Source: an uncultured Clostridia bacterium
Lineage (GTDB): Bacteria; Bacillota; Clostridia; TANB77; CAG-508
DNA length: 64,000 nt
NCBI GenBank assembly: GCA_944388805.1
Contig: CALXKE010000009.1
Coordinates: 2,734-66,733, forward strand
Direction of reading: 5' to 3'
Both the position numbers and the translations under genes were made by a program. Every line of letters begins with the position of its first letter. Positions within the stretch are counted from its first letter, which is position 1. Below the pieces are notes generated by a model. That model worked only from the letters and a program-made list of their open reading frames with translations. It was not told the DNA's origin and ran no database searches. This document shows positions 4,075 to 52,864 of this stretch, piece after piece.

Positions 4075-5619
4075 TTATATTTTTGTTATATCACTTAATT
4101 TTACTACTATAACATCATTGATAAGTTTTATATATCCTTTATTAGGAAAAACTGGCATTTGCTTATATTCTTCTGTACTAGTTACACCCCTATCATCAGA
4201 ATACTCCCATATATTCCATCCAAGACCTAGATTGTCTTGTAAGAAGACCTGCCATGTCCACATACTAATATTAGATATATCAAAATTTGTCATCTTTAAC
4301 AGTTCATCATTTTGTAAAGAAAAGTTTAATTTTCCTGTGATGACAATTGGCATATCTTTATTTCCTTCATTAATTTCTCTTATTTCCTCTACAATACTAT
4401 TTCCAACTGAATACATTTGTTTATTATATAAATCTGTTGCAACATATGTTGCATTATTTGACAATATATATGTCCAAATAATGATTGAACAGATAAGAAA
4501 AGATATAATATTTAGAATATTATTACATATATTTTCTTTTAATAATTCATTTTGTTTTAACAATAATATGATTGGCAAATATAATGATGAGGCCATTAAT
4601 AAATTGATAGTTCTTGATTGTGCAATGAGCTCAATAGAACATGTAAAAATAGGATATGTCAAAAGCATAAATATCATAGTTATCATCTTGCTTATTGATT
4701 TATAAAGATTTTTTTCTACTATAATGATTACAAAATTTATGATAATCAATATAAATACAATCATATTTAATATATGCCTATACCATGCTTGATTTGTAAA
4801 AATTTCATCTGTAAAATAAAAATCATAAAATGTAATATAAGCATTTTTTATAGAAGCAAATAAATTTGTGAATGTTTCTATACTTAGTATGTTATTTCCA
4901 TTACTATAATCACTTATGCTTAAATTTAAAATACTTGTTATAACAGTTAAACATAGATAATACAAAATCATGCCAATAACAATAATTGATAAATTTATAA
5001 AAAATTCTTTAAAATTTATTTTTTTATCTTCTATGATTTTCAAAATAAATGTTATGGCAAATAAAGCAGTTATATAACATAAATATGCTTGATAAAATCC
5101 TAATGTTGCAATAATGCAAATAATAGCTAGTATAACATTCTTTTTATTTTTTTCCTTGTTCAAAAAATATACCGAAAGTATAGCAAATAAAAGTGCTAAA
5201 CTATATCCAAATGCTGTGTAAGCATACATAAATGTTAATGAAATTGTTGGGGTAACTATCATTAATATGCTAATAGCTATTTTTATGTATGTCTTTTTTA
5301 TTTTTAAGATTTCATTCAAAATAATTGAAGAAAATCCTATTGAAATTATTGATAATGAAGTAGTCAAAATTGATACTACAATCGTTCCTCTAAATAAATC
5401 TGAAAATGGAATTAAAAATCTTCCAAGTGATATTTCCCATCCTTTTGCTAGCATAGATCCATAATGCCAATATCCATCTTCTGCAAGTAATTCTTTTGAA
5501 ATGAGTTCGAAATGAACTAAAAATCCCACAATAATGGTTATTATAAAAATTCTTTTTCTATCTTTTGTAAACCATCTACTAATAGATTTAAAAAGATGAT
5601 CCATTGATATACTTGTCAT
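4075..5619 (-). CDS. Polytopic membrane protein, possibly a GtrII-type glucosyltransferase-domain protein
   Basis: 514 aa with many hydrophobic segments and a soluble C-terminal region of about 100 aa. The N-terminal part (DGYWHYGSMLAKGWEISLGRFLIPF) recalls the GtrII-like glucosyltransferase membrane family. This is a weak call from memory. Confidence 0.45.
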   Translation of the reverse strand: MTSISMDHLFKSISRWFTKDRKRIFIITIIVGFLVHFELISKELLAEDGYWHYGSMLAKGWEISLGRFLIPFSDLFRGTIVVSILTTSLSIISIGFSSIILNEILKIKKTYIKIAISILMIVTPTISLTFMYAYTAFGYSLALLFAILSVYFLNKEKNKKNVILAIICIIATLGFYQAYLCYITALFAITFILKIIEDKKINFKEFFINLSIIVIGMILYYLCLTVITSILNLSISDYSNGNNILSIETFTNLFASIKNAYITFYDFYFTDEIFTNQAWYRHILNMIVFILIIINFVIIIVEKNLYKSISKMITMIFMLLTYPIFTCSIELIAQSRTINLLMASSLYLPIILLLKQNELLKENICNNILNIISFLICSIIIWTYILSNNATYVATDLYNKQMYSVGNSIVEEIREINEGNKDMPIVITGKLNFSLQNDELLKMTNFDISNISMWTWQVFLQDNLGLGWNIWEYSDDRGVTSTEEYKQMPVFPNKGYIKLINDVIVVKLSDITKI

Positions 5620-5669
5620 TTTTCTATCCCCTTTTTTGGTAGTAATTATTTTAAATAAATATAATTTTG

Positions 5670-6545
5670 TTAAACCCCATAATACTCTACACCTAAATTT
5701 TGTAATCTAGCAATTCTTTCATTATAGTTAGGATGTGTAGAATTTAGTGCTTTTAAAAATCCATTTTCAGATGGAATATCCAAACTAATCTTATCGAGAG
5801 CCTTGGCCAGCTGCGTACCATAACCTATTTTAAAAGCAAATTTATCTGCTTCATATTCATTAGCTCTCATTGACATACGCATGAACAAGATACAGAACTT
5901 TGTCCACAACCAAATAAACAGTGTGGAAATGCCACCAAATATCATTATAAAGAATGATGCTATTTTACTTCTTGTATTGATTGCAAATAATGAACAGATT
6001 GCCAAAACTATCCATGAAAGTATTTTTAGAAAAACTAACATTACACATATAAATAAGTTAGAACCTCCAATGATAAGTTGTATTTCAGAATCTCTATTTG
6101 CTAAATGCCCTAGTTCATGTGCAAGAACTCCCATGATTTCTTCATCAGATAATTCAAATAACCCAGAGGTAACACACAAGGTTCTTCTTCCTATTGCACA
6201 TGCATTTGGTGCAGAATCATAGATGACTTTTAACTTTATTGATTTTACCATTTTAGGATTTTCCTTTATTGCTTTATTATATACTATTTCCAGTAAGGGT
6301 ATGATTCTTATTTTCATATCTGCTCTTTTCATCTTTCTCCCATTAGCTAATAAAACCAATACCGCTTCACCTATTGGAGAAAGTGAAATGATAATCCCAA
6401 GAATATACGCAATAAATATCCATTCAATATATGTAAAATCTTGAAATCCTGCAGTAAAAAATCCTATTATTAAAAACAAATTCAAAATGCAAAACAATAT
6501 AGTTCCTATATTAGAAATTCGAAATATTTTATCTATCAAATCCAT
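5670..6545 (-). CDS. M48-family (HtpX-like) membrane zinc metalloprotease
   Basis: 291 aa with an HELGH zinc motif (VLAHELGHLANRD) and a downstream NEYEADKFA glutamate. TM segments flank the catalytic region. The start codon is 3 nt after the ATPase stop. Confidence 0.85.
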   Translation of the reverse strand: MDLIDKIFRISNIGTILFCILNLFLIIGFFTAGFQDFTYIEWIFIAYILGIIISLSPIGEAVLVLLANGRKMKRADMKIRIIPLLEIVYNKAIKENPKMVKSIKLKVIYDSAPNACAIGRRTLCVTSGLFELSDEEIMGVLAHELGHLANRDSEIQLIIGGSNLFICVMLVFLKILSWIVLAICSLFAINTRSKIASFFIMIFGGISTLFIWLWTKFCILFMRMSMRANEYEADKFAFKIGYGTQLAKALDKISLDIPSENGFLKALNSTHPNYNERIARLQNLGVEYYGV

Positions 6546-6548
6546 TTT

Positions 6549-9500
6549 TTACTCCTTTTTTAATTTATCCAAAAATTCTGTTAATTCTGTTTTCTTTGGG
6601 AAAATATATGGTTTTACTTGGAATGTATTTTTTAAAGAATCTGTATAGTATACCGTATTATCTTTCAAAGATTTTAATGATACTTCATCTATTAAGTTAT
6701 TTGCTTCCGTGTCATTAAGTGAAAATACATATCTTTCAGGAAATTTTGGAAGTGTATTTTGTCCATAATACATACATTCTTTTACACTTTGAAATTCAAG
6801 AGAGGTTATAATAAAATTAATTCCATATGAAGAACCATCATCTATTAATTTCATTAATTTACCACTTACATTTTCTTCAGAAGAACTGCTACTACTTCCA
6901 AATCCGAAAAATGATGCGGCATCCATAGGTTTTTCTTCTTTGTCTTCATGATTTGTCTCTTCCTCTAAATAATCACTTTCATTAATTTTATCACCTTTTA
7001 GCATATTTTTGATAAGATCCACATATTGAAAGTTTTTTATAAATACAACTAATTGCTCGTTTGTCATATTTTTCTTAGAATCTAAATAAAAATCATAGGC
7101 TTTTCTAATAAATCGAATAATATCTCCTCTATTCATTGCAATTTCAAATCTGTTTCCAAATTTTAAAAATTCAGTATAATATGATTTTTCAGGTATTTCA
7201 CTATCTAATATTACATCACCATCAATACATAGAATTTTTACATTTTCATTCAATAATAGTCCTAATGTATATAAATTGGTTAGATTTTCATACATTTTTT
7301 CATTTGCTCCACAAATTAGAGTATTGTGCTTACGTTTTTTGTCAAATATTGCATTTAGAGGTGGTGCAACTTTAATTAATGAACCTATTTGTATTGATAT
7401 AGGTAATTCATTTGTTATCTTCTCTGGTAAGACACTTAATAAATCTGTTGTTTTATTTCCTTCAAATGATTGCATATTATATTCAAAGTCTGCAAATTTT
7501 TCGGAGATTAACTCTAAATATTTTTTTTGTGTTTCATCATCACAATAGGCAACTCTTAATCCAATATTATTTTGTTCTGTATATTCCTCATTTAATACAG
7601 CTGTGCCAATTGGTCCTTTCATCATTTCTAATGCTTTATTTTCATTTCTATCTGTAAATAGATATCTTGCATCAAATTCTCCACATTTCAATCCAATTCT
7701 TATTCTCATTTGTTCGATTGTTCCACTATCTAAAGACAATTCAGAAATAATTTTTGTTGATTGTGTTGCCATTAATAAATGTATTCCATATGAACGTCCT
7801 TCTGTAACAATTCTCTTCGTTAATTCTGCACAATGTTTGGCTATTTTACGATTGCTTGCATCATTAAATAATATCTGAAACTCATCCATAATAACCAAAA
7901 TTTTTGGCATAGATTTACCAGATAAACTTATATATTCAGATAATTTAGAGGCATTGACTGATTTGAATTTTTCACTTCTTCTTTCGATTTCTGCAACTAA
8001 ATCTTCTAATATACTTTCTCCAAATTCTTGCATAGCATCTAATGCAAGTAGTTTGATATGTGGTAACCTATAAGAATCATATATTTTGAATTCTGTTCCG
8101 CCTTTAAAATCCATTAAGTATAAATTTAATTGATCTGGTGTATAATGTAGCATTGAACTCATAATTAATGTATGTAACAATGTAGATTTTCCTGAACCTG
8201 TTGCTCCTGCCACTAGTGCATGGTGTGATGATCCTTTTCCAAACACGATTGGTATTATTGTTTCTGCATCACCAATTCCAATTGGAATACTTAATTCTGC
8301 ATTTGTATTTCTGGTGAAAAGTTCTTTATCTAATATATCTTCAAAAGAAAATCCTTTTGATTTAATTTTTACATTTAGTTCTTTATATTTCTTGATAAAT
8401 TCATTTATTTTTGAATATTCTATAGGTTCTTTTATAGAAACCGGTAAACTAAATGGCTCTATTAAATAATTTTTGTTTGTAATTTCTATGCGCGAACAAT
8501 ATTTTTCCATTCTCTCATCAATGTCTATATCTCTACCATATGAATTATATTTTATATCTTTGTTGTGAGCAATTAATGCATAGATACCACATTTTCCTCC
8601 ATTTTTTAATATATTTTGCAAAAGTTCTATACTTTTTTCTTCAAATCCTGATGGGAAATCATATATTGCAATCATATTACAAGTTTCCATTCTAGTTGGA
8701 TTATTTTTATTGTATTCTAATATATTTGCATATTTGTTTCCCAATTTGTTTTGTATTACATCATCTATTTTTTGATTTAGTTTTTCTAAAAATTTTGTGA
8801 TATTTTCTTTATTTGTGTAAATTTGCTCTTCAAAAACTTCTGGACATTCTTTTTTAAAATCCAGGAATTGTTGTATACTACTTCCTTTTTGCTCACAGTC
8901 AATAATTGAAAATTTAATTTTAGAAACAGGAAACATAGATAATAATGACCATATAATGTGTCCAGAAAAATCTAACATTTTTCTTCTGGTCTCTTCTGAA
9001 TAATTTGCTAGAAAATTACAAGAGTTTCCTAAATCCATAAATAGTGGTAATGTAATTTTACCATTTTCATTTCTGAATTCTTTTTGTATTCTTTCATATC
9101 CATAACAATCAACAAATAAATCATTTGGATATTGTATCATACCAATAGGGATTTTACTTAAGTAACTTGCATTTTCTTCTGGCGCAATTCCAAATCTTTC
9201 ATTATATTCAGCTATAATTTCTTTAATATTTTCAATATTATTTTCTAATGTTTCTTCTTCTTTACTATCCATTAAGTTTCTGATATCTTTTGGTAATGCA
9301 ATTCCTTTATTTCGTATGCCTTCACTTATTAAAATATATTTTGAGAAAAAGTTATTAAACTCTATTTTGTTTATCATTTCAAAACTTATATATGGCATGG
9401 TTGCGTATTCAAATCCATTAGTTGTTTGTTGTATATAAACACAATGTGATTTTATCGTTTGGATACTATTTATTAATTCTTTAGATGTTCTTTTTTCATC

Positions 9501-10928
9501 TGGCTTTGAAGAACCTGCTATGATTACATAGATACCACATTTTTGTCCATATGTAATGATATTTTTTAAATAAGATAAGGTTTGCTCATCCATACCATTT
9601 GGAAAATCAAATATTGTAAGTACTTCGATTTTATAATGATAATCTTGATTGTCTTTTTTATATTCAAAAATATCTTTATATTCTGTTCCTAATATTTCTT
9701 GAGAAATATAGTCTACTTTTTCGTTAAGTGCATAGATTTTTTGAATAGCATCTTCCTGACTTACCAAAAATTTTCCATCAAAAAGTTCTGGCATTTTCTT
9801 TTTAGCATCGAAATATGTAGAAACACTATTACCATGATTTTCTATATCAATAATACTAAAAGTTAAGTTTGTTACGTGAATAGATGATAAATATGAAAAC
9901 ATAATTCCTTGTACCATATGGTTTAATGCCATTTTTCCATCTTCATTTTTTTCTATAAATATATCAAAAGGCTCTCCAACTGATGAAATTAATGGAAATC
10001 TTATTTTTTCATCTACAATTATATTTTTGCACCTTTCTGTCATAAAAGAAATTAACGTATTAGATTCTACAAATTCTTTTATATGAAAATCTATATATCC
10101 AGTATACAAAATATTATTTTTAACCCCTTCTAATGTATTTACTTTTGTATATGTTTTTTTATTTTCTTCTATGATATTAGCCATCATATTTATCAAGTCT
10201 GTTGGTAACAATTCATTAAATCTTTTTTCTAATTCTTGTGCAATAGCATATAATGTATCATTATATTTTTTTCTATTTTTTTCTTTAAATTCATTTTGTG
10301 ATTCTATCATTTCTTGTTTTTGTGAATTATGTGTATCTTTCATTTCGGTCATAGTTTCTTCTTCAACAGAATTTAACTCTTTTTCGATTTCTTCTACAAA
10401 ACTTTTTACTGTATTTTCAAGAATGATTAGTTCTTCATAATCTTTTTTTCTTTTTGATGAAAAGATATAGTTTAATCCATTTAAAACAGATGGTAATATA
10501 TCTGTTGAATATTTTTGACTAATTGTTGAAAATTGTTCTTTTATATTTTTTAATATTTCAAAATAGTCCATATCTTTTGCAAATTTATCACTTTTTTTGT
10601 TGGCTAATTCTTCCAATTTTTTCTTTTTTGTTTTTGCGTAATATTTATCAATAGATGACAATTTTTCTTCCATATCTACTATTTGTTTTTGGATTTTATT
10701 TGCTTCTTCAATCATTGATTTAGCATTTCTTTGTAAAGAGTCTATTGCATTTTGACAATCATTTTCAAATTTTTTGTTTTGCGCATTATACTCTGAAAGA
10801 ATTTGATCCATTTTAGACTTATAATCTTTTTGTGCTTTTATAATTTTTTCATCTATCTCTCCTAATAATGCTATTAGCTCATTAATTATATAAATTACTT
10901 TTTTATATGAAATTGGTTTTATTTCCAT
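6549..10928 (-). CDS. FtsK/SpoIIIE-family multi-domain ATPase (EssC/EccC-like, soluble)
   Basis: 1459 aa with a single canonical Walker A (VAGATGSGKSTLLHTL) and Walker B (ILVIMDEFQILF). Two upstream tandem modules and one downstream module have degenerate motifs. The N-terminal ~230 aa look like coiled coil, and no TM segment is visible. Confidence 0.85.
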   Translation of the reverse strand: MEIKPISYKKVIYIINELIALLGEIDEKIIKAQKDYKSKMDQILSEYNAQNKKFENDCQNAIDSLQRNAKSMIEEANKIQKQIVDMEEKLSSIDKYYAKTKKKKLEELANKKSDKFAKDMDYFEILKNIKEQFSTISQKYSTDILPSVLNGLNYIFSSKRKKDYEELIILENTVKSFVEEIEKELNSVEEETMTEMKDTHNSQKQEMIESQNEFKEKNRKKYNDTLYAIAQELEKRFNELLPTDLINMMANIIEENKKTYTKVNTLEGVKNNILYTGYIDFHIKEFVESNTLISFMTERCKNIIVDEKIRFPLISSVGEPFDIFIEKNEDGKMALNHMVQGIMFSYLSSIHVTNLTFSIIDIENHGNSVSTYFDAKKKMPELFDGKFLVSQEDAIQKIYALNEKVDYISQEILGTEYKDIFEYKKDNQDYHYKIEVLTIFDFPNGMDEQTLSYLKNIITYGQKCGIYVIIAGSSKPDEKRTSKELINSIQTIKSHCVYIQQTTNGFEYATMPYISFEMINKIEFNNFFSKYILISEGIRNKGIALPKDIRNLMDSKEEETLENNIENIKEIIAEYNERFGIAPEENASYLSKIPIGMIQYPNDLFVDCYGYERIQKEFRNENGKITLPLFMDLGNSCNFLANYSEETRRKMLDFSGHIIWSLLSMFPVSKIKFSIIDCEQKGSSIQQFLDFKKECPEVFEEQIYTNKENITKFLEKLNQKIDDVIQNKLGNKYANILEYNKNNPTRMETCNMIAIYDFPSGFEEKSIELLQNILKNGGKCGIYALIAHNKDIKYNSYGRDIDIDERMEKYCSRIEITNKNYLIEPFSLPVSIKEPIEYSKINEFIKKYKELNVKIKSKGFSFEDILDKELFTRNTNAELSIPIGIGDAETIIPIVFGKGSSHHALVAGATGSGKSTLLHTLIMSSMLHYTPDQLNLYLMDFKGGTEFKIYDSYRLPHIKLLALDAMQEFGESILEDLVAEIERRSEKFKSVNASKLSEYISLSGKSMPKILVIMDEFQILFNDASNRKIAKHCAELTKRIVTEGRSYGIHLLMATQSTKIISELSLDSGTIEQMRIRIGLKCGEFDARYLFTDRNENKALEMMKGPIGTAVLNEEYTEQNNIGLRVAYCDDETQKKYLELISEKFADFEYNMQSFEGNKTTDLLSVLPEKITNELPISIQIGSLIKVAPPLNAIFDKKRKHNTLICGANEKMYENLTNLYTLGLLLNENVKILCIDGDVILDSEIPEKSYYTEFLKFGNRFEIAMNRGDIIRFIRKAYDFYLDSKKNMTNEQLVVFIKNFQYVDLIKNMLKGDKINESDYLEEETNHEDKEEKPMDAASFFGFGSSSSSSEENVSGKLMKLIDDGSSYGINFIITSLEFQSVKECMYYGQNTLPKFPERYVFSLNDTEANNLIDEVSLKSLKDNTVYYTDSLKNTFQVKPYIFPKKTELTEFLDKLKKE

Positions 10929-10949
10929 TTTTTATTCCTTTCTGTTTTA

Positions 10950-12104
10950 CTACTTATCTTCTAATTCATATCTACATATACCTTTTTCTTTACATTCTTT
11001 TTTGCTAAATCCTACGACTAATGATGTTGTTATTTGTAAAGGATAACTAAATATTTCTAGCATTTCTCCTCCAATTTCAGGATTATTCGTATTACAAACA
11101 ATCGTATATTGTTTTAGATGATTTAATAGTCTTGGTATATATTCTTTATTATTGCTATTTAAAATGTCTATAATAAGTTTAATTCCAATTGTTGTTATGA
11201 AATTGATATCTACAGAAATTCCTGGTTCAAATTTCACAGCCTCTATATCTTCTTTATTGGAATATACATGATGATTTGCTTGAACACGTGAGGACATATT
11301 GGTTCCACTTCCTAAAGCACATTCATAACATGGCATTCCTTTATTCGGTATATGATAAAAAATTTCTCCTGCACATGCCCTCTCCCAAAATCCAAGAGAA
11401 ATGAAATATGATGAATAATATATACTAATTCTATTAGCATATACATCTGCTGCTCTATTATCTGCACAGCCTACAAATATTGTCTCCTCTGGTTTGCAGA
11501 ATTTATCTAAGATACCTTTAGGTAAATTTTCTACTACACCTTCATATTTTTCAATATGTACACTTGGATTTATATTTTTTAATTTTCGTGTTAAGGCATT
11601 TATCTTTAAATCTCCAACATCTTCAATACCACATTGATGTCTACAAATATTATGATATTCCATAATATCTGGATCTACTAATAGAAAATTCCCCACACCT
11701 GATCTTGCAAGTTCCATTGCCACTAAACTTCCTACAGATCCACATCCTAATATAACTGCACGTTTTTTAGACATGATATCTGTTTCTAATATTCCTTTAT
11801 TTCTAGAAAAGATATTTTGATACAAACTATATTCTTCTACTTTTAGTTTTTTACCTTCGCTATAGAACTCTATACTATCATTTGTATAGATAGCACAAAA
11901 TTCATCATTATTTGGCTTACTTCCTTCTGGTAATATATCACATAAAAAATCTCCTTTGTCTTGTAATTCTGTTGGAAATACATTGTATATATTTGTATCT
12001 TCAAAAAATTTTCCATATATTTTATTTGTTGTTCTATCTTTTAGTTGTTTATCTGCAATAAATACTATTTTTTCAATTTCATCGCCAAAAAAATTTTCCT
12101 TCAT
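10950..12104 (-). CDS. ThiF/MoeB/E1-like adenylyltransferase
   Basis: 384 aa with a Rossmann nucleotide loop (AVILGCGSVGSLVAMELARSG), LLVDPD, CRHQ and a CYEC zinc-type motif. An N-terminal extension of about 110 aa is unassigned. The start overlaps the JAB gene stop by 4 nt. Confidence 0.85.
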   Translation of the reverse strand: MKENFFGDEIEKIVFIADKQLKDRTTNKIYGKFFEDTNIYNVFPTELQDKGDFLCDILPEGSKPNNDEFCAIYTNDSIEFYSEGKKLKVEEYSLYQNIFSRNKGILETDIMSKKRAVILGCGSVGSLVAMELARSGVGNFLLVDPDIMEYHNICRHQCGIEDVGDLKINALTRKLKNINPSVHIEKYEGVVENLPKGILDKFCKPEETIFVGCADNRAADVYANRISIYYSSYFISLGFWERACAGEIFYHIPNKGMPCYECALGSGTNMSSRVQANHHVYSNKEDIEAVKFEPGISVDINFITTIGIKLIIDILNSNNKEYIPRLLNHLKQYTIVCNTNNPEIGGEMLEIFSYPLQITTSLVVGFSKKECKEKGICRYELEDK

Positions 12105-12682
12105 AAACTTCCTCCCATATTTTTCTCTTGATTCATTTTCAATAATTCTTCTATGATTTCATCTTTATGTAAGGTACTATACATTTTATCTTTTAATCTT
12201 TCTGGAGATTTTAATTTTAAGTATTCTGGAGGAATAAGTTCATCCCCTACTTCATAGCTTATCCTTTTATATTTACATGGTTGGTCAACATGATACATGG
12301 TAAATCTAAAATCTGGGTCAAGGTTTACTAGTCCTGAAATAGCTCCTTCTTTCCTTATTTTTGCAAATTTTGTGTTTGTACCATCATCTGTATCAGAGAA
12401 GATATCAAAAGAACCAGGATGTCTATGCCATAATCCTATAAGCCCTAATGGTTTATCATATAATTTTGCTATTTTATTGATTAGATGTTCTGTATATTTT
12501 TGATCATATTCAAAATATGTAACTGTAAAAATTGAATTGGGACCTGGATCAATTGTTTCTATAATATACCACTTGTCATCTACTACCGTTCCAAGAAATA
12601 ATCCTCCTGTTTCCGTTTTTATTTTTTCTAGTGTTTCTGTCATAACTGCTGTATATGCTCTATTTGAAAAAATTACTTGCAT
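12101..12682 (-). CDS. JAB/MPN (JAMM) metallopeptidase
   Basis: 193 aa with a conserved Glu (KTETGGLFLG) and a complete JAMM motif H-x-H-x7-S-x2-D (WHRHPGSFDIFSDTD). Confidence 0.85.
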   Translation of the reverse strand: MQVIFSNRAYTAVMTETLEKIKTETGGLFLGTVVDDKWYIIETIDPGPNSIFTVTYFEYDQKYTEHLINKIAKLYDKPLGLIGLWHRHPGSFDIFSDTDDGTNTKFAKIRKEGAISGLVNLDPDFRFTMYHVDQPCKYKRISYEVGDELIPPEYLKLKSPERLKDKMYSTLHKDEIIEELLKMNQEKNMGGSL

Positions 12683-12743
12683 TATTAACCTCCTAAAAAT
12701 ATAAGTGTTTACCTTATGCTATTGGGTAAACACTTAATAAAAT

Positions 12744-13259
12744 TTAATAATTGCCTTCTAAAGCAACATCATCACTTATTTCACCATTCAACCACATTTC
12801 ACATAATACAATCCATTTACATGCCCAGCTTAATGCTGAAGCTGCAGATGTTGATCTATTTTGTCCTGCTTTAAAATATTTAGGATCTGCTGTACAAATA
12901 AAATATTCCTCGTTTCTTCCAAAATTGTCTCTATATATGTGTGGTAGTCCTAATCCTAGTCCTTTTTCTGGTCTAATTGGTAATTTACTTGCAATATCTT
13001 TTAATCTTGGAGATACTGGAAGAATTTGTATAGAACCTCCGAATTCACCTTCTGCAGTATATGGATGATTATTTTTATATATTAACATTAAATCCCATTC
13101 CATACCATTAGGTCCTGAAGGTCTAACTTTTCCTCTCCAATATAATCTTCCTGTTCCATCTTGTAATTGACCTATTTTAAAAGATGGAAAAAATTTTCTC
13201 ATGGCAGTTACTTCTGCTTTATATAATTCTGGATCTCTTTCATACCAATAAAATCCCAT
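12744..13259 (-). CDS. E2/UBC-like protein (prokaryotic E2 family)
   Basis: 171 aa with a UBC-like pattern: LYWRGKVRP..WDLMLIYKNNHPY..ILPVSP..LPHIY..EEYFICTA (candidate catalytic Cys). It sits between the small protein and the JAB/E1 genes. Confidence 0.6.
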   Translation of the reverse strand: MGFYWYERDPELYKAEVTAMRKFFPSFKIGQLQDGTGRLYWRGKVRPSGPNGMEWDLMLIYKNNHPYTAEGEFGGSIQILPVSPRLKDIASKLPIRPEKGLGLGLPHIYRDNFGRNEEYFICTADPKYFKAGQNRSTSAASALSWACKWIVLCEMWLNGEISDDVALEGNY

Positions 13260-13278
13260 TTCTATTTCCCCCTTTATT

Positions 13279-13449
13279 TTATGCTAATTTTCCCTCTGGA
13301 ACAGATATTGCTGGTGTATCTTCTCCTTCTGCTTCTTCTTTGAATTCTACTTCTCCTGTTGGAGTTACAACTACTTCACCGTTTGTTCTTAATGCTTCTG
13401 CTAATGCTCTACGACGTTGAACAATTGCATCATTGTTATTTTCTTCCAT
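13279..13449 (-). CDS. 56-aa acidic small protein (candidate modifier or adaptor)
   Basis: AGGAGGG lies 6 nt upstream of the ATG at 13449. The longer 83-aa ORF would overlap the upstream gene. Sequence: MEENNNDAIVQRRRALAEALRTNGEVVVTPTGEVEFKEEAEGEDTPAISVPEGKLA. Confidence 0.5.
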   Translation of the reverse strand: MEENNNDAIVQRRRALAEALRTNGEVVVTPTGEVEFKEEAEGEDTPAISVPEGKLA

Positions 13450-13471
13450 GTTCATCCCTCCTATATATATT

Positions 13472-14407
13472 CTATTCTGTAACAAATGTTCTAATAATTT
13501 CTCCATTTTCGGCAATTCTTGTTGTAGCAACTCTTAGCATTTCGTCAGCTACTTCTTCACCTTTTTCTACAAGAAGTTTAGCGTATGAGTTATTGTATAA
13601 CTCTCCACCTTCTTGCATAAGTTTTGCTATATCTTCATGTGGTTTTCTAGCTCTTACATCCATATATGTCATAAAGTCTTGCAATTCTTTTAATGCTTCT
13701 TTATCACTGTTTATTGCTTTATTGGCTTTTACTAAATAAATTGTATATCTGGTTAATTTTATAGAAGTTCTAATAATACATTGTACTGCAACAATTAAGA
13801 ATTTTACGACACCTACCAAAAATTGTATAATTCCTGAAAGAATAGAACCACCGGCAGCAGCTTCTACAATTCCTGATATAGCATCTCCAAGAGCTGAGAA
13901 TATTGGTTTTAGTGCAACAAGAAGAGATCCTCCAATGGCTGCAAAAATAATAACTGTAATAATACTGCCCCCACTAGCTCCAATTGCACCACCAATTATA
14001 ACACCTATTAATGTTATAATATATTGAATCATAACTTTATTTCTATTTTTACTTAATTCTTTTTTATCATCATCAAATAATGCTTTACAACAATCAAAAC
14101 ATAAATATTTTCCTGCATATTCCCCACCACTTACAGAACAGGTTTCTGCACATTCTTTACATATATTTTCACCACATCTTGCACATTGTGCTACCGCTGG
14201 ATGATTTGGATGGTTTTTACATGCTGGACCATCAAATTTTGTTTCTCCTGTTGGTGCTGTAAAAGTTGGTATATCATCTTCTGGTGGTGTGAATGTTGGT
14301 ATCTCATCCTCCTTAGGTGGTGTAAATGTTGGTATTTCTTCATTTTCTTTAATATTTTCTTTTACATTAGTTTCTTCTTTTTCATTAACATCTTCTTTTA
14401 TTTCCAT
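13472..14407 (-). CDS. B-box/zinc-ribbon membrane protein with glycine-zipper TM region
   Basis: 311 aa. The acidic N-terminus has three IPTFT(P/A)P repeats. A Cys/His cluster follows (CKNHPNHPAVAQCARCGENICKECAETC...CFDCC), then about 100 aa of G-rich hydrophobic segments (GGAIGASGG, AAIGGS, AAAGGS) and a soluble C-terminal domain. Confidence 0.65.
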   Translation of the reverse strand: MEIKEDVNEKEETNVKENIKENEEIPTFTPPKEDEIPTFTPPEDDIPTFTAPTGETKFDGPACKNHPNHPAVAQCARCGENICKECAETCSVSGGEYAGKYLCFDCCKALFDDDKKELSKNRNKVMIQYIITLIGVIIGGAIGASGGSIITVIIFAAIGGSLLVALKPIFSALGDAISGIVEAAAGGSILSGIIQFLVGVVKFLIVAVQCIIRTSIKLTRYTIYLVKANKAINSDKEALKELQDFMTYMDVRARKPHEDIAKLMQEGGELYNNSYAKLLVEKGEEVADEMLRVATTRIAENGEIIRTFVTE

Positions 14408-14424
14408 TTGCTAATATCCCCCTT

Positions 14425-14694
14425 TTAAAATTCAATATTACTATTGTATTTTTCTACAATACCTTTTAAATGTTCTATTTTGTCACGTGCTTTACATAAT
14501 GATGGCATAGGTTCTAAAAGTTTTTTACTTAATGTTGATAATGCTTTATTAAAATCTGTTCCTTTATCATCAGACCAGTCTATACTATTTGCAAAACTTG
14601 TAATCTTTGAATTTAATGCAAATGCTTTTCTAGCTTCATCATTTATAGCTTGTATTGCTTGTTCTAAACTTTCTATTGAAGTATTTACTCCCAT
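14425..14694 (-). CDS. WXG100-like helical-hairpin protein (W-x-D variant), paralog 3
   Basis: 89 aa, predicted helix-turn-helix hairpin with the central motif SIDWSDDKGTDFNKAL. Confidence 0.5.
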   Translation of the reverse strand: MGVNTSIESLEQAIQAINDEARKAFALNSKITSFANSIDWSDDKGTDFNKALSTLSKKLLEPMPSLCKARDKIEHLKGIVEKYNSNIEF

Positions 14695-14744
14695 TTTATT
14701 TCCTCCTTCGGTTTTTAATTTAATATTTTATTTATGATTGCATT

Positions 14745-15020
14745 TTAAACAATTGGTGTATCATAATCACGTACATACTCTTTTACTTTTTCTAGACCTA
14801 TACGTAATCTTCCCACTTCATTAAATGAGTTATCTAATGTATCAATGCTTTCATCAACAGATTTTTTTACACTCTTAAACTGTTCATCATTCCAGCCTCC
14901 ACTTATCTCATTAAAATTCACATCTACAGCTCGTATAAGTGACAATAACTCATCTAAAACTTCATCACACAACTCTATTGCCTTATCTACTGTTTCTTCA
15001 GTTATCTGCATTTTTGCCAT
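14745..15020 (-). CDS. WXG100-like helical-hairpin protein (W-x-D variant), paralog 2
   Basis: 91 aa with the central motif SGGWNDEQFKSV. Its size and mid-protein Trp turn are like Esx/WXG100 proteins. Confidence 0.5.
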   Translation of the reverse strand: MAKMQITEETVDKAIELCDEVLDELLSLIRAVDVNFNEISGGWNDEQFKSVKKSVDESIDTLDNSFNEVGRLRIGLEKVKEYVRDYDTPIV

Positions 15021-15069
15021 AATTCTCTCCCCTTTCTAAAAAATGATATATTTAATATAAACTTAATAG

Positions 15070-15807
15070 CTATGCATTTAAATATTCTTGTATATATGTC
15101 ATACATTGATTTACACCTGATAATGTATCTGAACTGCTGTCTATTACTTTTTGTTTAAAATTTTTAGAAACTTCTAACAATCTATTCAGACTCTCTTCCA
15201 GCTTTTCTCCTGCTTTTTTTAATGCTTCTAATTTGTCTTTCATTTTATTTAGTTCATTTTTTTCATCTTCTAATTGACTGCTTTTTTGTGCTAATACATT
15301 TTGTAATTCATCTACTTGACTTTTTTGTTGATTTATTGTTGTATTTATTTGCTTTTTTTCAACTTCCAATTGATTGTTCTCTGATTGTTTTTGAGATAAT
15401 TGATAACTTACTTGCGTTATTTGTTGCTGTATATTCGCTTTCTCATTTTCATCCTCTGCATTACTCAATCTACTTTGTAAAATAGACATAGAAGTTGATA
15501 AATTTGAAATTTCATTATTGTTTGTGGCAATTTGATTGTCCATGTTGTTTATTTGTGTATTCAAATGATTCATTTCATTTTCAATATGCATGATATCTGA
15601 TGTTGTTTGATTTACTTCACTCGTTAGTTGTTTTACTTTATCCTCACTTTGCGTTACCAGTTCTTGCTGTTTATTAATGATTTCTTTGCACTCATCTTGT
15701 AGTTGTTCTATATGTTTTTTTTGATTATCTGCTATTTTTTCAACATCATTTCTAAAATTTAATAATGCTTCTTTTACAATTTCTAATCCCTTTTCACTTA
15801 CTTCCAT
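15070..15807 (-). CDS. Coiled-coil protein (Q/N/E-rich)
   Basis: 245 aa, almost entirely heptad-like and helical (NQ..LQ..L repeats). No TM segment or enzymatic motif is visible. Confidence 0.6.
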   Translation of the reverse strand: MEVSEKGLEIVKEALLNFRNDVEKIADNQKKHIEQLQDECKEIINKQQELVTQSEDKVKQLTSEVNQTTSDIMHIENEMNHLNTQINNMDNQIATNNNEISNLSTSMSILQSRLSNAEDENEKANIQQQITQVSYQLSQKQSENNQLEVEKKQINTTINQQKSQVDELQNVLAQKSSQLEDEKNELNKMKDKLEALKKAGEKLEESLNRLLEVSKNFKQKVIDSSSDTLSGVNQCMTYIQEYLNA

Positions 15808-15820
15808 TTGTTTCCCCTAT

Positions 15821-16045
15821 CTATTGTTCATTATATGATTCAAAATTTTTTATATTTTTACTGCACTCTTCTCCTGCATCTATTAATTCTCTTGTACTTC
15901 CAGCAATTTGTTGTATTGCTTTTGTTAATTCTTGAAATTTTTCATCTCTCCATTCAATTCCAGCTCTATTGATTTCATTTCCCAAATTTTGTGTACTTTT
16001 TTTAAACTCTTCTATATCTTGTAATACATGCTTAGAATTTTCCAT
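15821..16045 (-). CDS. WXG100-like helical-hairpin protein (W-x-D variant), paralog 1
   Basis: The ATG at 16045 lies 12 nt after AAGAGGG. The ORF-track start at 16057 is a TTG abutting the RBS. About 74 aa with the central motif AGIEWRDEKFQEL. First gene of the operon. Confidence 0.5.
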   Translation of the reverse strand: MENSKHVLQDIEEFKKSTQNLGNEINRAGIEWRDEKFQELTKAIQQIAGSTRELIDAGEECSKNIKNFESYNEQ

Positions 16046-16081
16046 TACTTCTTTCAACCCTCTTTTAAATTAATACGTATA

Positions 16082-16110
16082 AAGTATATCATAAAATTCT
16101 AAAATTGTAT
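16082..16110 (-). promoter_or_regulatory. Putative sigma-A promoter of the E1/E2/JAB-ATPase operon
   Basis: On the minus strand: TATACA, a 17-nt spacer, then TGaTATACT (extended -10). It lies about 35 nt upstream of the first gene. AT-rich context, so this is tentative. Confidence 0.35.
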
Positions 16111-16181
16111 ATATTTTTACATTTTTTTCATTTTTCTTTATTTTTTTATCGAAATATTATAAAAAGAACTCATCAGAAATA

Positions 16182-16221
16182 GTAGAGTGGCAGATGTTGT
16201 TCTTTCATCTGCCACTTTCTA
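16182..16221 (-). terminator. Terminator hairpin downstream of the PBP gene
   Basis: agtggcagatg / catctgccact 11-bp stem directly after the PBP stop, followed on the minus strand by a U-containing tail. It insulates the downstream operon. Confidence 0.55.
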
Positions 16222-16229
16222 CTTCATTA

Positions 16230-18836
16230 TTATTCAACCTCTTCACTATTTTTTACTACAGAAGTATTAGAAGTAGGTGTACTTGTATTTGTACTTGGTA
16301 CTGTATTTGAAGTGTTGGTTGAAGTATTCGTACTTCCTGCACTATTTGTCGTATTACTTGTAGTAGAATTTGTTGTACTTGTATTGGATGAAGTTGTGTT
16401 ATTTCTATTCGTATTTGTTGTATTTGTTCTATTATTATCAGTCGTGGTATTTGTTCTATCAGTATCTGTTGTTGTATTTGTTGTTATGTTGACTGACGTG
16501 TTTGTTGATGTATTTGTTTCTGGAATTTGATTTTCTAGACTTGGATCTAATGTTAAATCTTCATTAATCACATTTTGATTTGTTTTCTCATTTTGTTTAT
16601 TTTGATTTCTATTTGTTGTAACCGTACTTCCAGAATGTTCTGTACAATTATCTGGCTTTGTTCCCAATAAGAAATATTCTTCATAGGTGTTTGTACAACC
16701 ACTATTTGCAATTCCACCAGAATCTGCACATATGGTTTCTGTTTGTATCCAGCTAGGTTTTTCAAATGTTGCACTAGCTAATCCAGAATGAATATTTCTC
16801 ATAACATTTGCCCAAATAACTCCTGCTGGATTTTGTCTATTAAAATAAATTGTTTCATTTTGATCATATCCAAACCATGTTGCAGCTGTATAGTATGGAG
16901 TAAAGCCACATAACCATCTATCATAGTTTTCATCTGTTGTTCCAGTTTTAGCTGCTACATCCATTCCTGATATAGAACAATAGGTTGCTGTTCCATTTGC
17001 TCCTTTTACAGGTTGTGTTAATATTTCTTTTAAAATATAGGCCACTTGCTTTGAAAATACTCTATGAGTTTCAGGTTTCGCTTCTGCAATCGTTTTTCCA
17101 GATTGATTTGTTATTTCTGTATAGAAAGTCGGTTCTATATATACACCATCATTAGCAATTGTTGCATAAGCTGCCGCCATTTCTAACGGTGTAATTCCTT
17201 TATCTAATCCTCCTAGGGCCAATGATAAACTTTCATCTTTTTCTGTTAAAGTCGTGATTCCCATATCTTTTAAATAAGATATAGAAGTTTTCACACCTAT
17301 TTGTTCCATCATTTCTACAAATGGAATGTTTTGAGAGGATTCTACTGCTCTTCGAACCGTTATTTCTCCTAAATATCCATCATAATTTACAGGATTGTAG
17401 TTTCCAGCAAAAGTTGTTTCTTCATCCGCATACATGGTTGCTGCTGTGAATTTTTTCTTATCAATTCCAGGTGCTAATACAGCTAATGGTTTAATTGAAG
17501 AACCTGTTTGCCTTGTACTTTGTGTTGCTCTATTTAATCCTCTTGCTGTATCTTTTTCTCCTAAGCCACCGACACAAGCGACTACTTGACCTGTTTGATG
17601 ATCTATAATAACCATTGCTGCTTGTGCTGGATCTCCACCTTCTCTTGAAGCAATGTTATATTGACGTTTATTAAATTCTGTTTCTGTTTCATCTTGGATG
17701 TTTGAATTTTGTGTGCTATTAATTGTTAATCCACCTAAATATAAATAGTTTGTAGCAAAATCTTCTGTTATATTTTTCTTATCTGCTATATCTTGAGTTA
17801 TTTCATTAATTAAAGCATCTGTGTGATAAGAATAAATTCCATCATTTGCTTCTACTGTTCCTTGTTTAAAGCTTAATCCGTTATTTACCTCTGATACAGC
17901 TGTATTATACTCTTCTTCAGTAATGTATTCTAATTCTAACATTTTATCTAATACTGTTATTGTTCTGTTTGCGATTTTCTCTGTATTATCTGTTTCATTA
18001 TTAAATGGATTATATGAATTTGGTGAATTGTTAATTCCTGCTAAAAAGGCACATTCCGCAAGTGTCAGATTTTGAACATCTTTACTAAAATAATATTGGC
18101 TACCAGCACCTACACCATATATATTCGGTCCAACATAGATGACATTTAAATACATATCTAATATTTCTTCTTTTGAGAAATAACATTCTAGTAAGTATGC
18201 TTTCCACCATTCTTTTACTTTTCTAGAAATAGAACCACTGTTATCTCCTGTTAAATTTTTTACCAACTGTTGTGTAATAGTACTTCCTCCAAATGAAGAG
18301 TTTCCCATATGTATGACATAATTAATAATTGCTGAGCCTGTTCTTCTAATATCTACACCGTGATGTCTATAATATCTTTCGTCTTCGATGGAAACATAAG
18401 CATTTTTTAAATTTTCAGGCATATCTTCATTTTCAATTTTTATTTTCTTTCTTTCACTGCCAAGTTCTGCAATCACATTGCCATCAGAATCCACGACAAC
18501 AGAATTTTCATTTGTAAACATATCTGTTGTTATCTGCTTCCAATTATATGCAGAAATGCCTAAAATAATAGCTAAGATAATAATGATAATAATAATAACT
18601 GCAATAATGATTTTTTTAATTTTCTTTTTCCTAATAGCTTTTTTATAATCAAAATCATTATCATGATTTTGTTCATTTTTCTTTTTAGCATGCTTATGTT
18701 TTCTAATATTTTTATGTTTATCTCTAGATTTTCTTTCGTTTTCTTCTTCCATGAATTTCTCTCGTTCTTCTTTTTCTTTTTGCATTTCTCTCATAGCTCT
18801 AGGAAGTTCTTCTTCATTCTTTTTATTTTTAAACAT
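16230..18836 (-). CDS. Class A penicillin-binding protein (PBP1A-type transglycosylase/transpeptidase)
   Basis: GT51 motifs EDERYYRHHG, GGSTITQQL and RKVKEW. Transpeptidase motifs SSIKP, SQN and KTGTT. The likely start is MFKNKK at 18836 (the ORF extends to 18935). It has a K/E-rich cytoplasmic head and a T/N/S-rich C-terminal tail of about 130 aa. Confidence 0.95.
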   Translation of the reverse strand: MFKNKKNEEELPRAMREMQKEKEEREKFMEEENERKSRDKHKNIRKHKHAKKKNEQNHDNDFDYKKAIRKKKIKKIIIAVIIIIIIILAIILGISAYNWKQITTDMFTNENSVVVDSDGNVIAELGSERKKIKIENEDMPENLKNAYVSIEDERYYRHHGVDIRRTGSAIINYVIHMGNSSFGGSTITQQLVKNLTGDNSGSISRKVKEWWKAYLLECYFSKEEILDMYLNVIYVGPNIYGVGAGSQYYFSKDVQNLTLAECAFLAGINNSPNSYNPFNNETDNTEKIANRTITVLDKMLELEYITEEEYNTAVSEVNNGLSFKQGTVEANDGIYSYHTDALINEITQDIADKKNITEDFATNYLYLGGLTINSTQNSNIQDETETEFNKRQYNIASREGGDPAQAAMVIIDHQTGQVVACVGGLGEKDTARGLNRATQSTRQTGSSIKPLAVLAPGIDKKKFTAATMYADEETTFAGNYNPVNYDGYLGEITVRRAVESSQNIPFVEMMEQIGVKTSISYLKDMGITTLTEKDESLSLALGGLDKGITPLEMAAAYATIANDGVYIEPTFYTEITNQSGKTIAEAKPETHRVFSKQVAYILKEILTQPVKGANGTATYCSISGMDVAAKTGTTDENYDRWLCGFTPYYTAATWFGYDQNETIYFNRQNPAGVIWANVMRNIHSGLASATFEKPSWIQTETICADSGGIANSGCTNTYEEYFLLGTKPDNCTEHSGSTVTTNRNQNKQNEKTNQNVINEDLTLDPSLENQIPETNTSTNTSVNITTNTTTDTDRTNTTTDNNRTNTTNTNRNNTTSSNTSTTNSTTSNTTNSAGSTNTSTNTSNTVPSTNTSTPTSNTSVVKNSEEVE

Positions 18837-19040
18837 AGATTCACTATCCTTTATTTTTAATTTCTCTAATAGTATAACACAATCACTAAAAAAATCAAAC
18901 CATAAACTTATACTTACTACAGGTGTATTATGCATTATTATTTAAAGCAAAAACTTTGCGCAAAACTTTTCAAATTTCTATTTCTTTTTTAAATGTATTG
19001 AGATATAATACTATATATACCAAAGGAGTGTGAAAAACAT

Positions 19041-51581: not shown

Positions 51582-51647
51582 TGCAAGTTTTTCCTATGAC
51601 TTTTAAATTGTAATTGCAAGTTTTTCTGAGGACTTTTCAACTGTAAT
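51582..51647. repeat. Tandem 33-bp duplication at the ORF6N gene 3' end
   Basis: tgcaagtttttcctatgacttttaaattgtaat / tgcaagtttttctgaggacttttcaactgtaat. The second copy contains the stop codon. Confidence 0.85.
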
Positions 51648-52572: not shown

Positions 52573-52781
52573 ATCCTTAATTTGTTGTATGTATTATAGA
52601 ACATATGTTCTTGAATGTCAAGTGTTTTTAATGACCTTTTATAGATAATTGCATTTTTTATCTTTTAGTAAATTTATACTGTTATTTTTTCGTATTTTTA
52701 TTAAAATTCGTACATTGCCATTTTCGAGCAATCCTTACAGCCTCTAACAAAATTGATATGTGTTTTTTTCTGACAGCCAAC

Positions 52782-52863: not shown

Positions 52864-52864
52864 A

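Follow-up and report, generated by a model that had tools for sequence, protein, structure and literature searches.

A type VII secretion-like gene cluster of gut Clostridia that carries a ubiquitin-style conjugation module and a putative new kind of tag

The stretch of DNA analyzed here, 64,000 nucleotides (nt) of contig CALXKE010000009.1 (positions 2,734 to 66,733; GenBank assembly GCA_944388805.1), comes from an uncultured Clostridia bacterium and is referred to below as the window. It holds a tight cluster of 11 minus-strand open reading frames (ORFs; 5670-16057), numbered g01 to g11 in the order in which they are read, in which proteins that resemble type VII secretion system (T7SS) components are encoded together with E1-like, E2-like, and JAB proteins of a ubiquitin-style conjugation pathway and with a 56-amino-acid (aa) protein, g06. 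Our best reading is that the cluster combines T7SS-like export with a ubiquitin-style module and a new kind of tag, and we consider it probable that it is a T7SS-like toxin exporter of gut Clostridia that is regulated by reversible tagging. An earlier reading, made from the sequence alone (hereafter, the sequence-only reading), had offered two possibilities, namely a defence system or a secretion-related system in which ubiquitin-like conjugation is coupled to an ATPase. Synteny and a rearranged form of the locus favor the latter.

To place the cluster among its relatives, we scanned one genome per species with the ATPase (g10), for which about 60 full-length homologues were found, and obtained 80 loci, mostly from Lachnospiraceae, Oscillospiraceae, Acutalibacteraceae, Christensenellaceae, and other Clostridia. 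Gene order was established by searching the ORFs of each locus with the window proteins. The usual order is hairpin, coiled coil, hairpins, zinc-finger membrane protein, 56-aa protein, E2, JAB, E1, and ATPase. The full system occurs in at least 44 species, including a cultured strain, Faecalibacterium prausnitzii ATCC 27768 (L054), and an identical protein set is present on metagenome contigs of several samples. With the same order in dozens of species, the juxtaposition is far beyond chance; the sequence-only reading had proposed conserved synteny as a test of its claim, and 44 loci, spread over many genera, carry the full module beside the ATPase.

Presence and absence were then counted in loci with at least 4.5 kb of sequence upstream of the ATPase. 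Homologues of g06, E2, JAB, and E1 were all found in 44 loci and all missing from 19, and no locus had a subset (0). Because they are either all present or all absent, these four genes are one module, embedded in a core that is able to exist alone. Nine Clostridia loci have hairpin and coiled-coil genes beside the ATPase and lack the four module genes, and a Blautia glucerasea isolate has a clean module-less version in which the ATPase comes straight after the zinc-finger protein. Other arrangements retain both parts. In a second clade (L063-L076), the module lies ahead of a shorter ATPase and the hairpins lie behind it. Two rearranged loci on metagenome contigs (L087 and L088) encode, in this order, an FtsK-family ATPase, a W-N-D hairpin, a toxin, the products of two small genes, a tag-E2 fusion (the tandem-unit protein P0321), JAB, and E1; a protein of 217 aa, in which two tag-like repeats are present in degenerate form, is encoded ahead of the fusion. 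Since L087 and L088 reunite the same components in another order, the partnership between ATPase and module outlasts rearrangement.

Two observations on distribution stand apart from these counts. Complete systems were seen on contigs of metagenome-assembled genomes (MAGs) labeled Bacteroidetes, Spirochaetes, Phycisphaerales, and Muribaculaceae (L015, L033, L049, and L059) from gut and termite samples, for which mis-binning and horizontal transfer are the candidate explanations. More distant relatives of the ATPase, of an 840-aa class and with ~26-35% identity, come from Porphyromonas, Capnocytophaga, Prevotella, Fibrobacteria, and Electrothrix (L074-L086). A W-x-D hairpin gene lies near the ATPase in L074, L075, and L082, and no conjugation module was found among L074-L086.

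Within the module, g06 is the likely conjugated modifier, or tag, a role that the sequence-only reading had missed. Its homologues (82 clusters of 34-84 aa, matching no Pfam family) conserve a helix, strands, and a near-invariant tail, VP-x-GKLA. Thirty-nine of the 82 stop exactly at GKLA, another 39 are extended by 1-5 residues that are not conserved (KED, RED, TTEV, etc.), and four are without the motif. A profile search of 1.84 billion representatives returned 83 g06 relatives. In four proteins (P0289, P0299, P0321, and P0350), two to four tandem g06-like units, each ending in P-x-GKLA, are joined directly to an E2, and P0326 joins a single unit to an E2. We regard g06 as a probable tag because of this near-invariant tail, the exact or extended endings, and the tandem E2 fusions. 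By analogy, the pattern is that of the precursors of polyubiquitin and of the ubiquitin-like protein (Ubl)-E2 fusion of BubAB, and cleavage after the tail would be predicted; the BubAB fusion is cut by its own JAB domain (PMC11601596).

An AlphaFold2 (AF2) model of g06, of moderate confidence (predicted local distance difference test score, pLDDT, 69.5), consists of a helix, two strands, a short helix, a strand, and a loose tail. Its best Foldseek match in the PDB has an E-value of 1.7, and no beta-grasp protein is matched by this model of moderate confidence. As g06 matches no structure, it is not a recognizable beta-grasp protein; the idea of a miniature beta-grasp Ubl was dropped for want of any match under E 1.7. 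A tag without the beta-grasp would be compatible with a CBASS-type enzyme (CBASS being an anti-phage signaling system based on cyclic oligonucleotides), judging by the analogy with Cap2, which adenylates the disordered extreme C-terminus of cGAS, a non-beta-grasp protein (10.1101/2022.03.31.486616).

Tag-like sequences also turned up in other contexts. A g06 homologue on a Holdemania MAG (L067, 1832-2257) runs past GKLA into a 50-residue CxxC-rich zinc-ribbon domain. A 634-aa protein with vWA, zinc-ribbon, and TIR domains, encoded in L090 (4277-6181) and L091 (1980-3884), contains a tag-like domain (…IQVPDGKLAGG…), and its gene adjoins those of a helix-turn-helix (HTH) regulator and a Ser/Thr kinase; no E1, E2, or JAB gene is nearby.

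The three enzymes of the module are predicted from profile matches (E-values in brackets here and below). g07 matched CBASS-derived E2 models of PADLOC (3e-10 and 2.5e-9), and PF26395 (E2-CBASS) is the precomputed Pfam assignment of g07 and of nearly all of its homologues listed; the Pfam scan that we ran on g07 gave no match. It is the most conserved component of the system, the best 120 of 205 homologous clusters being 65-92% identical, and ~50 orthologues show no variation in a P106-H107 pair or at Cys122, the candidate catalytic residue. Plasmid and phage collections contained no g07 homologues. g08 is over the threshold for Pfam Prok-JAB (1.2e-6) and matches PADLOC JAB models (1e-10) and the NCBIfam 6A-MBL cap2_3 model (8e-14; Cap3 itself, 0.006). 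Its JAMM motif, E..HxH..S..D, is conserved in ~50 orthologues, and g08 is predicted to be an active JAB peptidase, a Cap3-type feature. The window clade has a short form of this protein (175-193 aa). Orthologous JABs elsewhere (L012-L061; for example, L054 4661-5662) are mostly 320-360 aa long and have a ~150-aa C-terminal extension, which matched no Pfam family.

g09 matches Pfam ThiF (6e-27) and the CBASS-derived E1-E2 models of PADLOC (3e-27). A poorly conserved N-terminal domain of ~100 aa comes ahead of the ThiF domain and of four cysteines (C259, C262, C371, and C377) that make up a Cys4 zinc site, and the nucleotide-binding loop, Asp215/Arg217, and the zinc site are conserved in ~50 orthologues. 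By sequence, its closest solved relatives are MccB (6e-12), UBA5 (4e-10), and Cap2 (1.5e-8); PaaA also matches. The E2 and E1 genes are separate, with the JAB gene between them. When all cluster proteins except the ATPase were run through PADLOC, as the sequence-only reading had advised, single E2, JAB, and E1 models matched and nothing else did, so that no complete named system emerged.

On the export side, the 1459-aa g10 has an N-terminal coiled-coil domain (residues 1-280) with two motifs, DKYYxKTK and SSKRKKDYEEL, followed by a degenerate tandem (285-575 and 590-872), an active P-loop domain (873-1145), and a degenerate C-terminal domain. Pfam FtsK_SpoIIIE matches residues 882-1057 only (1e-27), and the best NCBIfam models, EccCa (7e-33) and EssC (2e-25), both score under their curated cut-offs. 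The two parts of the tandem are a duplication (hhalign, 5e-60). Alignment with the active domain gave an E-value of only 0.003-0.08 and was abandoned as sequence proof that the degenerate domains are FtsK-like; we relied on the structural resemblance to three-domain EccC in its place. An AF2 model of residues 285-1459 (pLDDT 78.9) has four alpha/beta domains, and Foldseek places first the cytoplasmic domain of EccC with its three ATPases (4NH0; 2e-27, ~1000 aligned columns), followed by ATPases 2+3 of EccC/EssC (1e-18 to 4e-20), FtsK (2e-12), and then TcpA. No hydrophobic segment was found in g10, in which no 19-residue window reaches a Kyte-Doolittle value of 1.6 over 1459 residues; the same scan detects the helices of g05, the M48 protease, the glycosyltransferase, and the penicillin-binding protein (PBP) of the window. 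The model thus points to a T7SS-type ATPase, but a soluble one with Walker motifs in one domain only.

To look for residues specific to the module, we compared 47 module-bearing with 8 module-less ATPases. Seventeen positions are conserved only with the module. Fifteen of them lie in the N-terminal third and 12 within residues 90-180, including L90, D94, K95, L108, R160, K161, Y164, E165, and E180, which fall in the motifs DKYYxKTK and SSKRKKDYEEL; beyond residue 465 there are just two (828 and 1243). Because the module-only residues cluster there, we suggest that the N-terminal domain is a target or docking site of the module, with K95 and K161 as candidate acceptor lysines, which is a lead rather than proof.

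Separately, two ~300-aa proteins encoded between a toxin cassette and the M48 gene in L023 (13513-14379 and 14660-15622) look by eye like degenerate ATPase domains (…YIVMISDLSEMPFF…GKKYGVVFIIGESD…). One of them was scanned against Pfam and gave no match; they could be stand-alone adaptor domains.

The sequence-only reading had called g01, g03, and g04 WXG100-like hairpins. Profiles speak for the superfamily, but the motif is W-x-D rather than W-x-G. When the hairpin family profile (A5) was run against solved structures, T7SS EsxB (4e-5) and EsxA (2e-4) came first, in full-length alignments that place the Trp in register with the WXG Trp; in the hairpin turn, an invariant Asp replaces the Gly. 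Five of 20 family members match Pfam WXG100 (best, 4e-6), the three of the window staying under threshold (g01, E 0.008). A hidden Markov model (HMM) that was trained on the toxins encoded downstream in related loci, using their N-terminal domains, matched only g03 (2.8e-11), g01 (2e-8), and g04 (3.4e-7) over the 64-kb window. The three proteins are thus best described, from their profiles, as divergent W-x-D variants of the WXG100 superfamily. Orthologues of g01 are present in most loci; its start codon is TTG, and gene callers favor an ATG at 16045 (74 aa). Lysines near the W-x-D turn were considered as module-specific acceptors and rejected, the same motif being present with and without the module. 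g02 adjoins g01 whether or not a locus has the E1/E2 module and is a conserved core component.

Two membrane proteins complete the cluster. g05 has an N-terminal cytoplasmic binuclear zinc finger (C-x2-H-x8-C-x2-C-x4-C-x2-C-x16-19-C-x2-C; Pfam zf-B_box 0.0017, under threshold), a hydrophobic block (124-218), and a C-terminal domain. Of 47 homologues, 46 retain all eight zinc ligands, including both from loci without E1/E2, and the remaining one is a fragment that is truncated at its N-terminus. At positions 235-308, conservation is seen only with the module, in a comparison with two module-less sequences. As a zinc finger beside the module, g05 was considered as a dedicated E3, an idea that is weakened by the equal retention of the ligands without E1/E2. 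g11 matches Pfam Peptidase_M48 (3e-23) and has four hydrophobic segments; in ~30 loci, the M48 gene adjoins the ATPase gene or sits 1-5 kb downstream, often after toxin cassettes.

The toxin cassettes of related loci encode the putative cargo. In the majority of these loci that extend far enough downstream, the ATPase gene is followed immediately by one for a two-part protein of 230-420 aa. Its N-terminal part is a W-x-D hairpin domain (Pfam WXG100, 1e-5 to 1e-3), and its C-terminal part varies: four of the ten proteins scanned match a toxin or peptidase family, two of them the papain-fold glutamine-deamidase toxin PF15644 (2e-12 and 2e-8) and two Peptidase_C39_2 (6e-7 and 7e-5). Further cargo proteins have HExxH-type C-terminal regions, recognized by eye only. 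The cargo of L088 has an ADP-ribosylating toxin domain (PF03496), and that of L087 has a different C-terminus. Small unannotated genes follow the cargo genes, and some loci have several cassettes ahead of M48; when Pfam was searched for immunity families among the small downstream genes, only DUF7675 and DUF1292 came back. Polymorphic toxin loci of T7SS have the same layout (Zhang et al. 2012, PMC3482391; PMC11217815). The sequence-only reading had seen no toxin effector, which is correct for the window but not for orthologous loci, where polymorphic toxins lie right behind the ATPase. The window cluster is without a cassette, given that just 3 nt separate its ATPase gene from that of M48.

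The cluster itself is organized as the sequence-only reading had described it. All 11 genes are there, head to tail on the minus strand (Table 1), with intergenic distances of 13, 49, 50, 17, 22, 19, 61, -4, 21, and 3 nt from g01 to g11, where -4 nt is the overlap of the JAB and E1 genes and 3 nt the gap between ATPase and M48; the gap range of 3-61 nt and the 4-nt overlap given previously agree with this spacing. The motifs on which the genes had been identified all occur in the translations (LPHIY..YFICTA; ETGG and HRHPGSFDIFSDTD; GCGSVGS and CYEC; GATGSGKST and VIMDEF; HELGH), and profile and structure tools back the identities, apart from the W-x-D hairpins and the 56-aa protein discussed above. 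No terminator-like site was found within 5300-16400 (0, against 2.4 +/- 2.1 in shuffled DNA), which is compatible with a single transcription unit. Upstream, the hairpin reported downstream of the PBP gene is present and has a 10-bp stem (GTGGCAGATG...CATCTGCCAC). The promoter-like element reported alongside it has no evidential value: this AT-rich DNA gave 82 sigma-70-like matches versus 76.8 +/- 7.9 in shuffled sequence, and the promoter scan was dropped as being at chance level.

Table 1. Features of the cluster and its upstream region (positions in the window)
Gene	Feature	Position	Strand	Basis or remarks
	Upstream intergenic region	16058-16229	-	PBP-end hairpin; AGAGGG ribosome-binding site ahead of g01; sequence read directly
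g01	W-x-D helical hairpin, 74-78 aa, EWRDEKF	15821-16057	-	Toxin N-domain HMM; profile A5
g02	245-aa coiled-coil protein	15070-15807	-	Coiled-coil-type matches only
g03	W-x-D hairpin, GWNDEQF, C-terminal EY..D motif	14745-15020	-	Toxin N-domain HMM; profile A5
g04	W-x-D hairpin, DWSDDKG	14425-14694	-	Toxin N-domain HMM; profile A5
g05	B-box-like zinc-finger membrane protein	13472-14407	-	Zinc ligands; hydrophobic segments
g06	56-aa acidic protein, proposed modifier	13279-13449	-	Conserved tail ...SVPEGKLA-COOH
g07	E2-like protein, CBASS type, 171 aa	12744-13259	-	PADLOC E2 models; PF26395 E2-CBASS
g08	Predicted JAB/JAMM metallopeptidase, short form, 193 aa	12101-12682	-	Pfam Prok-JAB; PADLOC; NCBIfam
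g09	E1-like adenylating enzyme, 384 aa	10950-12104	-	Pfam ThiF; PADLOC CBASS E1-E2
g10	1459-aa soluble multi-domain FtsK-family ATPase	6549-10928	-	Pfam FtsK_SpoIIIE; NCBIfam; AF2/Foldseek
g11	Membrane M48 (HtpX-like) zinc protease, HELGH, last cluster gene	5670-6545	-	Pfam Peptidase_M48

Housekeeping genes surround the cluster, with PBP1, a tyrosine recombinase, a carbohydrate kinase, and an extracytoplasmic function (ECF) sigma/anti-sigma pair on one side and a glycosyltransferase and Rho on the other. The class A PBP (16230-18935, minus strand) has a Thr/Asn/Ser-rich low-complexity C-terminal tail of ~120 residues. Farther away, a group II intron domain (53756-53873, minus strand; Rfam RF01999 group-II-D1D4-2, 107 bits versus a threshold of 36) lies beside ORFs at 51637-52572 and 52744-53388 (minus strand).

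From these components, we infer the enzymatic steps, the target of tagging, and its effect on export as follows. The export part would comprise a soluble EccC/EssC-like ATPase, three W-x-D hairpins with the coiled-coil protein, and two membrane proteins, and the conjugation part would comprise g06, a CBASS-type E2, a JAB peptidase, and an E1. With g06 serving as the tag, JAB would cut extended or tandem E2-fused precursors after ...GKLA, and E1 would adenylate the exposed C-terminal Ala56, in parallel to the action of Cap2 on the cGAS C-terminus. The tag would then be transferred to Cys122 of E2 and attached to a lysine of the export machine, for which K95 or K161 in the ATPase N-terminal domain would be the best candidate; JAB would take it off again. 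Such reversible tagging could switch assembly or activity of the exporter and would be the covalent counterpart of the non-covalent action of YukD/EsaB in T7SSb. This ubiquitin-fold protein, which is not conjugated, has a part in T7SSb assembly (PMC12637312). We also put forward, as a tentative proposal that falls short of probable, that g06, produced as single, extended, or tandem precursors, is the first of a new class of ubiquitin-like modifiers without a beta-grasp and that on/off tagging of the ATPase or its substrates gates secretion.

Several points weigh against an exporter controlled by tagging. The window contains no cargo, the only matches to the toxin N-domain HMM over its 64 kb being the three hairpins themselves. 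g10 appears to be without the membrane anchor of all described T7SS ATPases, and an export channel is only postulated. The clustering of module-only residues in its N-terminal domain could partly reflect phylogeny, the 8 module-less ATPases being mutually related. The E2 assignment of g07 comes from PADLOC and Pfam profiles only, neither its single sequence nor a 13-sequence profile having given a meaningful E2 match among solved structures. No catalytic (thioester) cysteine could be assigned in g09 among its orthologues, in which Cys244 varies and C203 and C213 are invariant. The predicted structure of the tag is of moderate confidence and has no known fold, and the vWA-TIR proteins look like a different, defence-like setting of the same small domain. 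g05 is probably not a dedicated E3, because its zinc finger is kept in loci without E1/E2. The evidence as a whole is computational.

Four other explanations were weighed. The cluster might serve in defence against phages as a relative of type II CBASS, with E1/E2/JAB priming or restraining an effector (the ATPase or the membrane proteins) and nothing being exported. This would fit the enzymes, which score best against CBASS-derived PADLOC models (and, for E2, Pfam E2-CBASS), the defence role of all bacterial E1/E2/JAB pathways characterized to date (PMC11601596), and the occurrence of a tag-like domain in a vWA-TIR protein beside an HTH regulator. However, the cluster has no CD-NTase, cyclic-nucleotide effector, or further PADLOC component, its neighbors (PBP, glycosyltransferase, Rho, and sigma factor) are housekeeping rather than defence genes, its E2 has no match in plasmid or phage collections, and the core cluster also occurs without the module. 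Moreover, the polymorphic toxins of orthologous loci, with their WXG-like N-domains and accompanying small genes, are a signature of interbacterial toxin export. We consider defence, the other possibility raised by the sequence-only reading, unlikely. That the E1 instead alters the C-terminus of the 56-aa peptide, as in MccB/PaaA-type modification, and that the product is exported as an antibiotic or signal, is quite unlikely in our judgment. MccB is the nearest solved relative of the E1 (6e-12) and PaaA matches too, the ~100-aa domain before the adenylation domain is found in those enzymes as well, and the substrate would likewise be a small ribosomal product with a conserved C-terminus. Yet the E1 is always accompanied by a conserved E2 with an invariant Cys and by a JAB that is predicted to be active, and some species have the core cluster without the module. 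The tag ends in Ala, not in the Asn needed by MccB chemistry, and tandem tag-E2 fusions suit a conjugation precursor better than an antibiotic precursor. To our knowledge, Mcc and Paa clusters have neither an E2 nor a JAB.

Since the four module genes are present or absent as a unit while the order of the flanking core is unchanged, they could also be an E1/E2/JAB cassette that was inserted into a T7SS-like cluster and has no functional link to it. The insertion point, between zinc-finger protein and ATPase, is nonetheless the same in 44 loci whose ATPases are ~30-81% identical, the second clade and the rearranged locus keep the partnership in other orders, the N-domain motifs of the ATPase are found only with the module, and gaps of 19-22 nt together with the 4-nt overlap suggest co-transcription; two independent neighbors are decidedly improbable. 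Finally, an active domain of the FtsK/SpoIIIE family and a model that matches FtsK motor and TcpA structures would fit a DNA-translocation or conjugation-type FtsK/TcpA system that exports no protein. The matches to EccC/EssC are better by 8-15 orders of magnitude and extend over several domains, the Pfam and NCBIfam scans of the cluster revealed no relaxase, replication, or other conjugation genes, and the ATPase is accompanied by WXG100-like proteins and by toxins with WXG-like N-domains, all of which make this explanation highly improbable.

A T7SS-like exporter with a tagging module has parallels in several known systems. It shares with T7SS a multi-domain FtsK-family ATPase, whose predicted structure is nearest to EccC/EssC, several small hairpins, assigned by profile to the WXG100 superfamily, that are encoded beside the ATPase, orthologous-locus toxins in which a helical N-terminal targeting domain precedes the toxic part and small genes follow, and a small ubiquitin-related protein (YukD/EsaB there, the tag here). 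In T7SS subtypes a-j, however, the ATPase is always membrane-bound, a YukD-like protein is nearly always present (T7SSd being the sole subtype without a YukD/EsaB-like protein), and E1/E2/JAB never are (Garrett, Higginson and Palmer 2024, PMC11217815). The ATPase of our cluster starts with a coiled coil, is predicted to have neither transmembrane helices nor FHA domains, and has Walker motifs only in the third of its four domains; in the cluster, the membrane parts consist of an M48 protease and a protein with a B-box-like zinc finger, the hairpins are W-x-D instead of W-x-G, and a covalent conjugation module is present. We know of no conjugatable C-terminus in YukD and of no enzymes that accompany it. 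Pfam and NCBIfam profiles found no YukD-like, EssA/EssB/EsaA, or EccB/D/E family among the 11 proteins, in line with the absence of an Ess/Yuk membrane core noted in the sequence-only reading; a very divergent YukD-like fold may be hidden among the unmodelled proteins. With an ATPase that is not bound to the membrane, and with neither YukD-like nor subtype-specific components found, the cluster appears to belong to none of the subtypes a-j. Nor does any other named system match, as had been surmised, PADLOC having returned only the single E2, JAB, and E1 models and subtypes a-j being without these enzymes. Full-text literature searches, which cover few subscription journals, returned no description of E1/E2/JAB combined with WXG100, FtsK, or T7SS proteins, including those on T7SS variants and on families of bacterial ubiquitination operons; an earlier description may nonetheless exist.

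The module itself resembles the Cap2/Cap3 enzymes of type II CBASS (and of Pycsar and 6A-MBL), in that its E2 and E1 score best against CBASS-derived models, a JAB is alongside, and the presumed substrate would be recognized by a flexible tail with a small end residue rather than by a beta-grasp. Cap2, by contrast, is an E2-E1 fusion, whereas E2 and E1 are separate here; the module has a dedicated 56-aa substrate, which also occurs as tandem repeats, and lies in an export cluster rather than a defence island. The previously reported lack of a CD-NTase was borne out, neither a CD-NTase nor a nucleotide-activated effector being found by Pfam (11 proteins) or PADLOC (all but the ATPase). As in Bil (BilA-D), a small modifier gene adjoins separate E2, JAB, and E1 genes, and, as in BubAB, there are modifier-E2 fusions that are predicted to require JAB cleavage. 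In contrast to Bil and Bub, the modifier is no recognizable beta-grasp Ubl, the E1 has a single adenylation domain, and the module is tied to an ATPase, WXG proteins, and toxins; Bub (6E/DUF6527) moreover uses a serine where the E2 here keeps its cysteine, and no DUF6527 protease is present. With MccB and PaaA, the nearest solved relatives of its adenylation domain, g09 has in common a ~100-aa N-terminal domain (by position and length) and an action, proposed in our case, on the C-terminus of a small ribosomal product. It differs in the constant presence of E2 and JAB, partners that those pathways are without, and MccA ends in Asn and becomes a nucleotide antibiotic, whereas the tag ends in Ala.

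A footnote to a table in Zhang et al. 2012 (PMC3482391) describes distinct YueA-like ATPases with solo WXG proteins in Gram-negative lineages, with three domains of which the middle one is active. As far as that footnote goes, these systems resemble ours in having a T7SS-like ATPase with one active FtsK domain of several and solo WXG-type proteins, and they may correspond to our distant homologues in Bacteroidota (L074 and L075) and Electrothrix (L082). The footnote itself includes no E1/E2/JAB, tag, zinc-finger membrane protein, or M48 protease, all of which are part of the cluster studied here.

T7SSs need a non-conjugated ubiquitin-fold protein, and the reason for this is a long-standing puzzle. 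Bacterial E1/E2/JAB pathways characterized to date, namely type II CBASS and Bil, all work in phage defence. If our tentative proposal on g06 and gated secretion is true, the cluster would be the first secretion system under the control of a covalent ubiquitin-style tag and would contain the first bacterial E1/E2/JAB pathway with a role other than phage defence. Control of export by tagging would be a new regulatory logic for secretion, comparable to the removal of ubiquitin by Rpn11 at the proteasome motor, and would extend the definition of ubiquitin-like modifiers past the beta-grasp fold. The question is directly testable, because the cultured F. prausnitzii strain has the full system. Together, our results suggest that bacteria can control protein export through covalent tagging; if so, the system would likely be a weapon of interbacterial competition in abundant gut commensals, Faecalibacterium prausnitzii among them.

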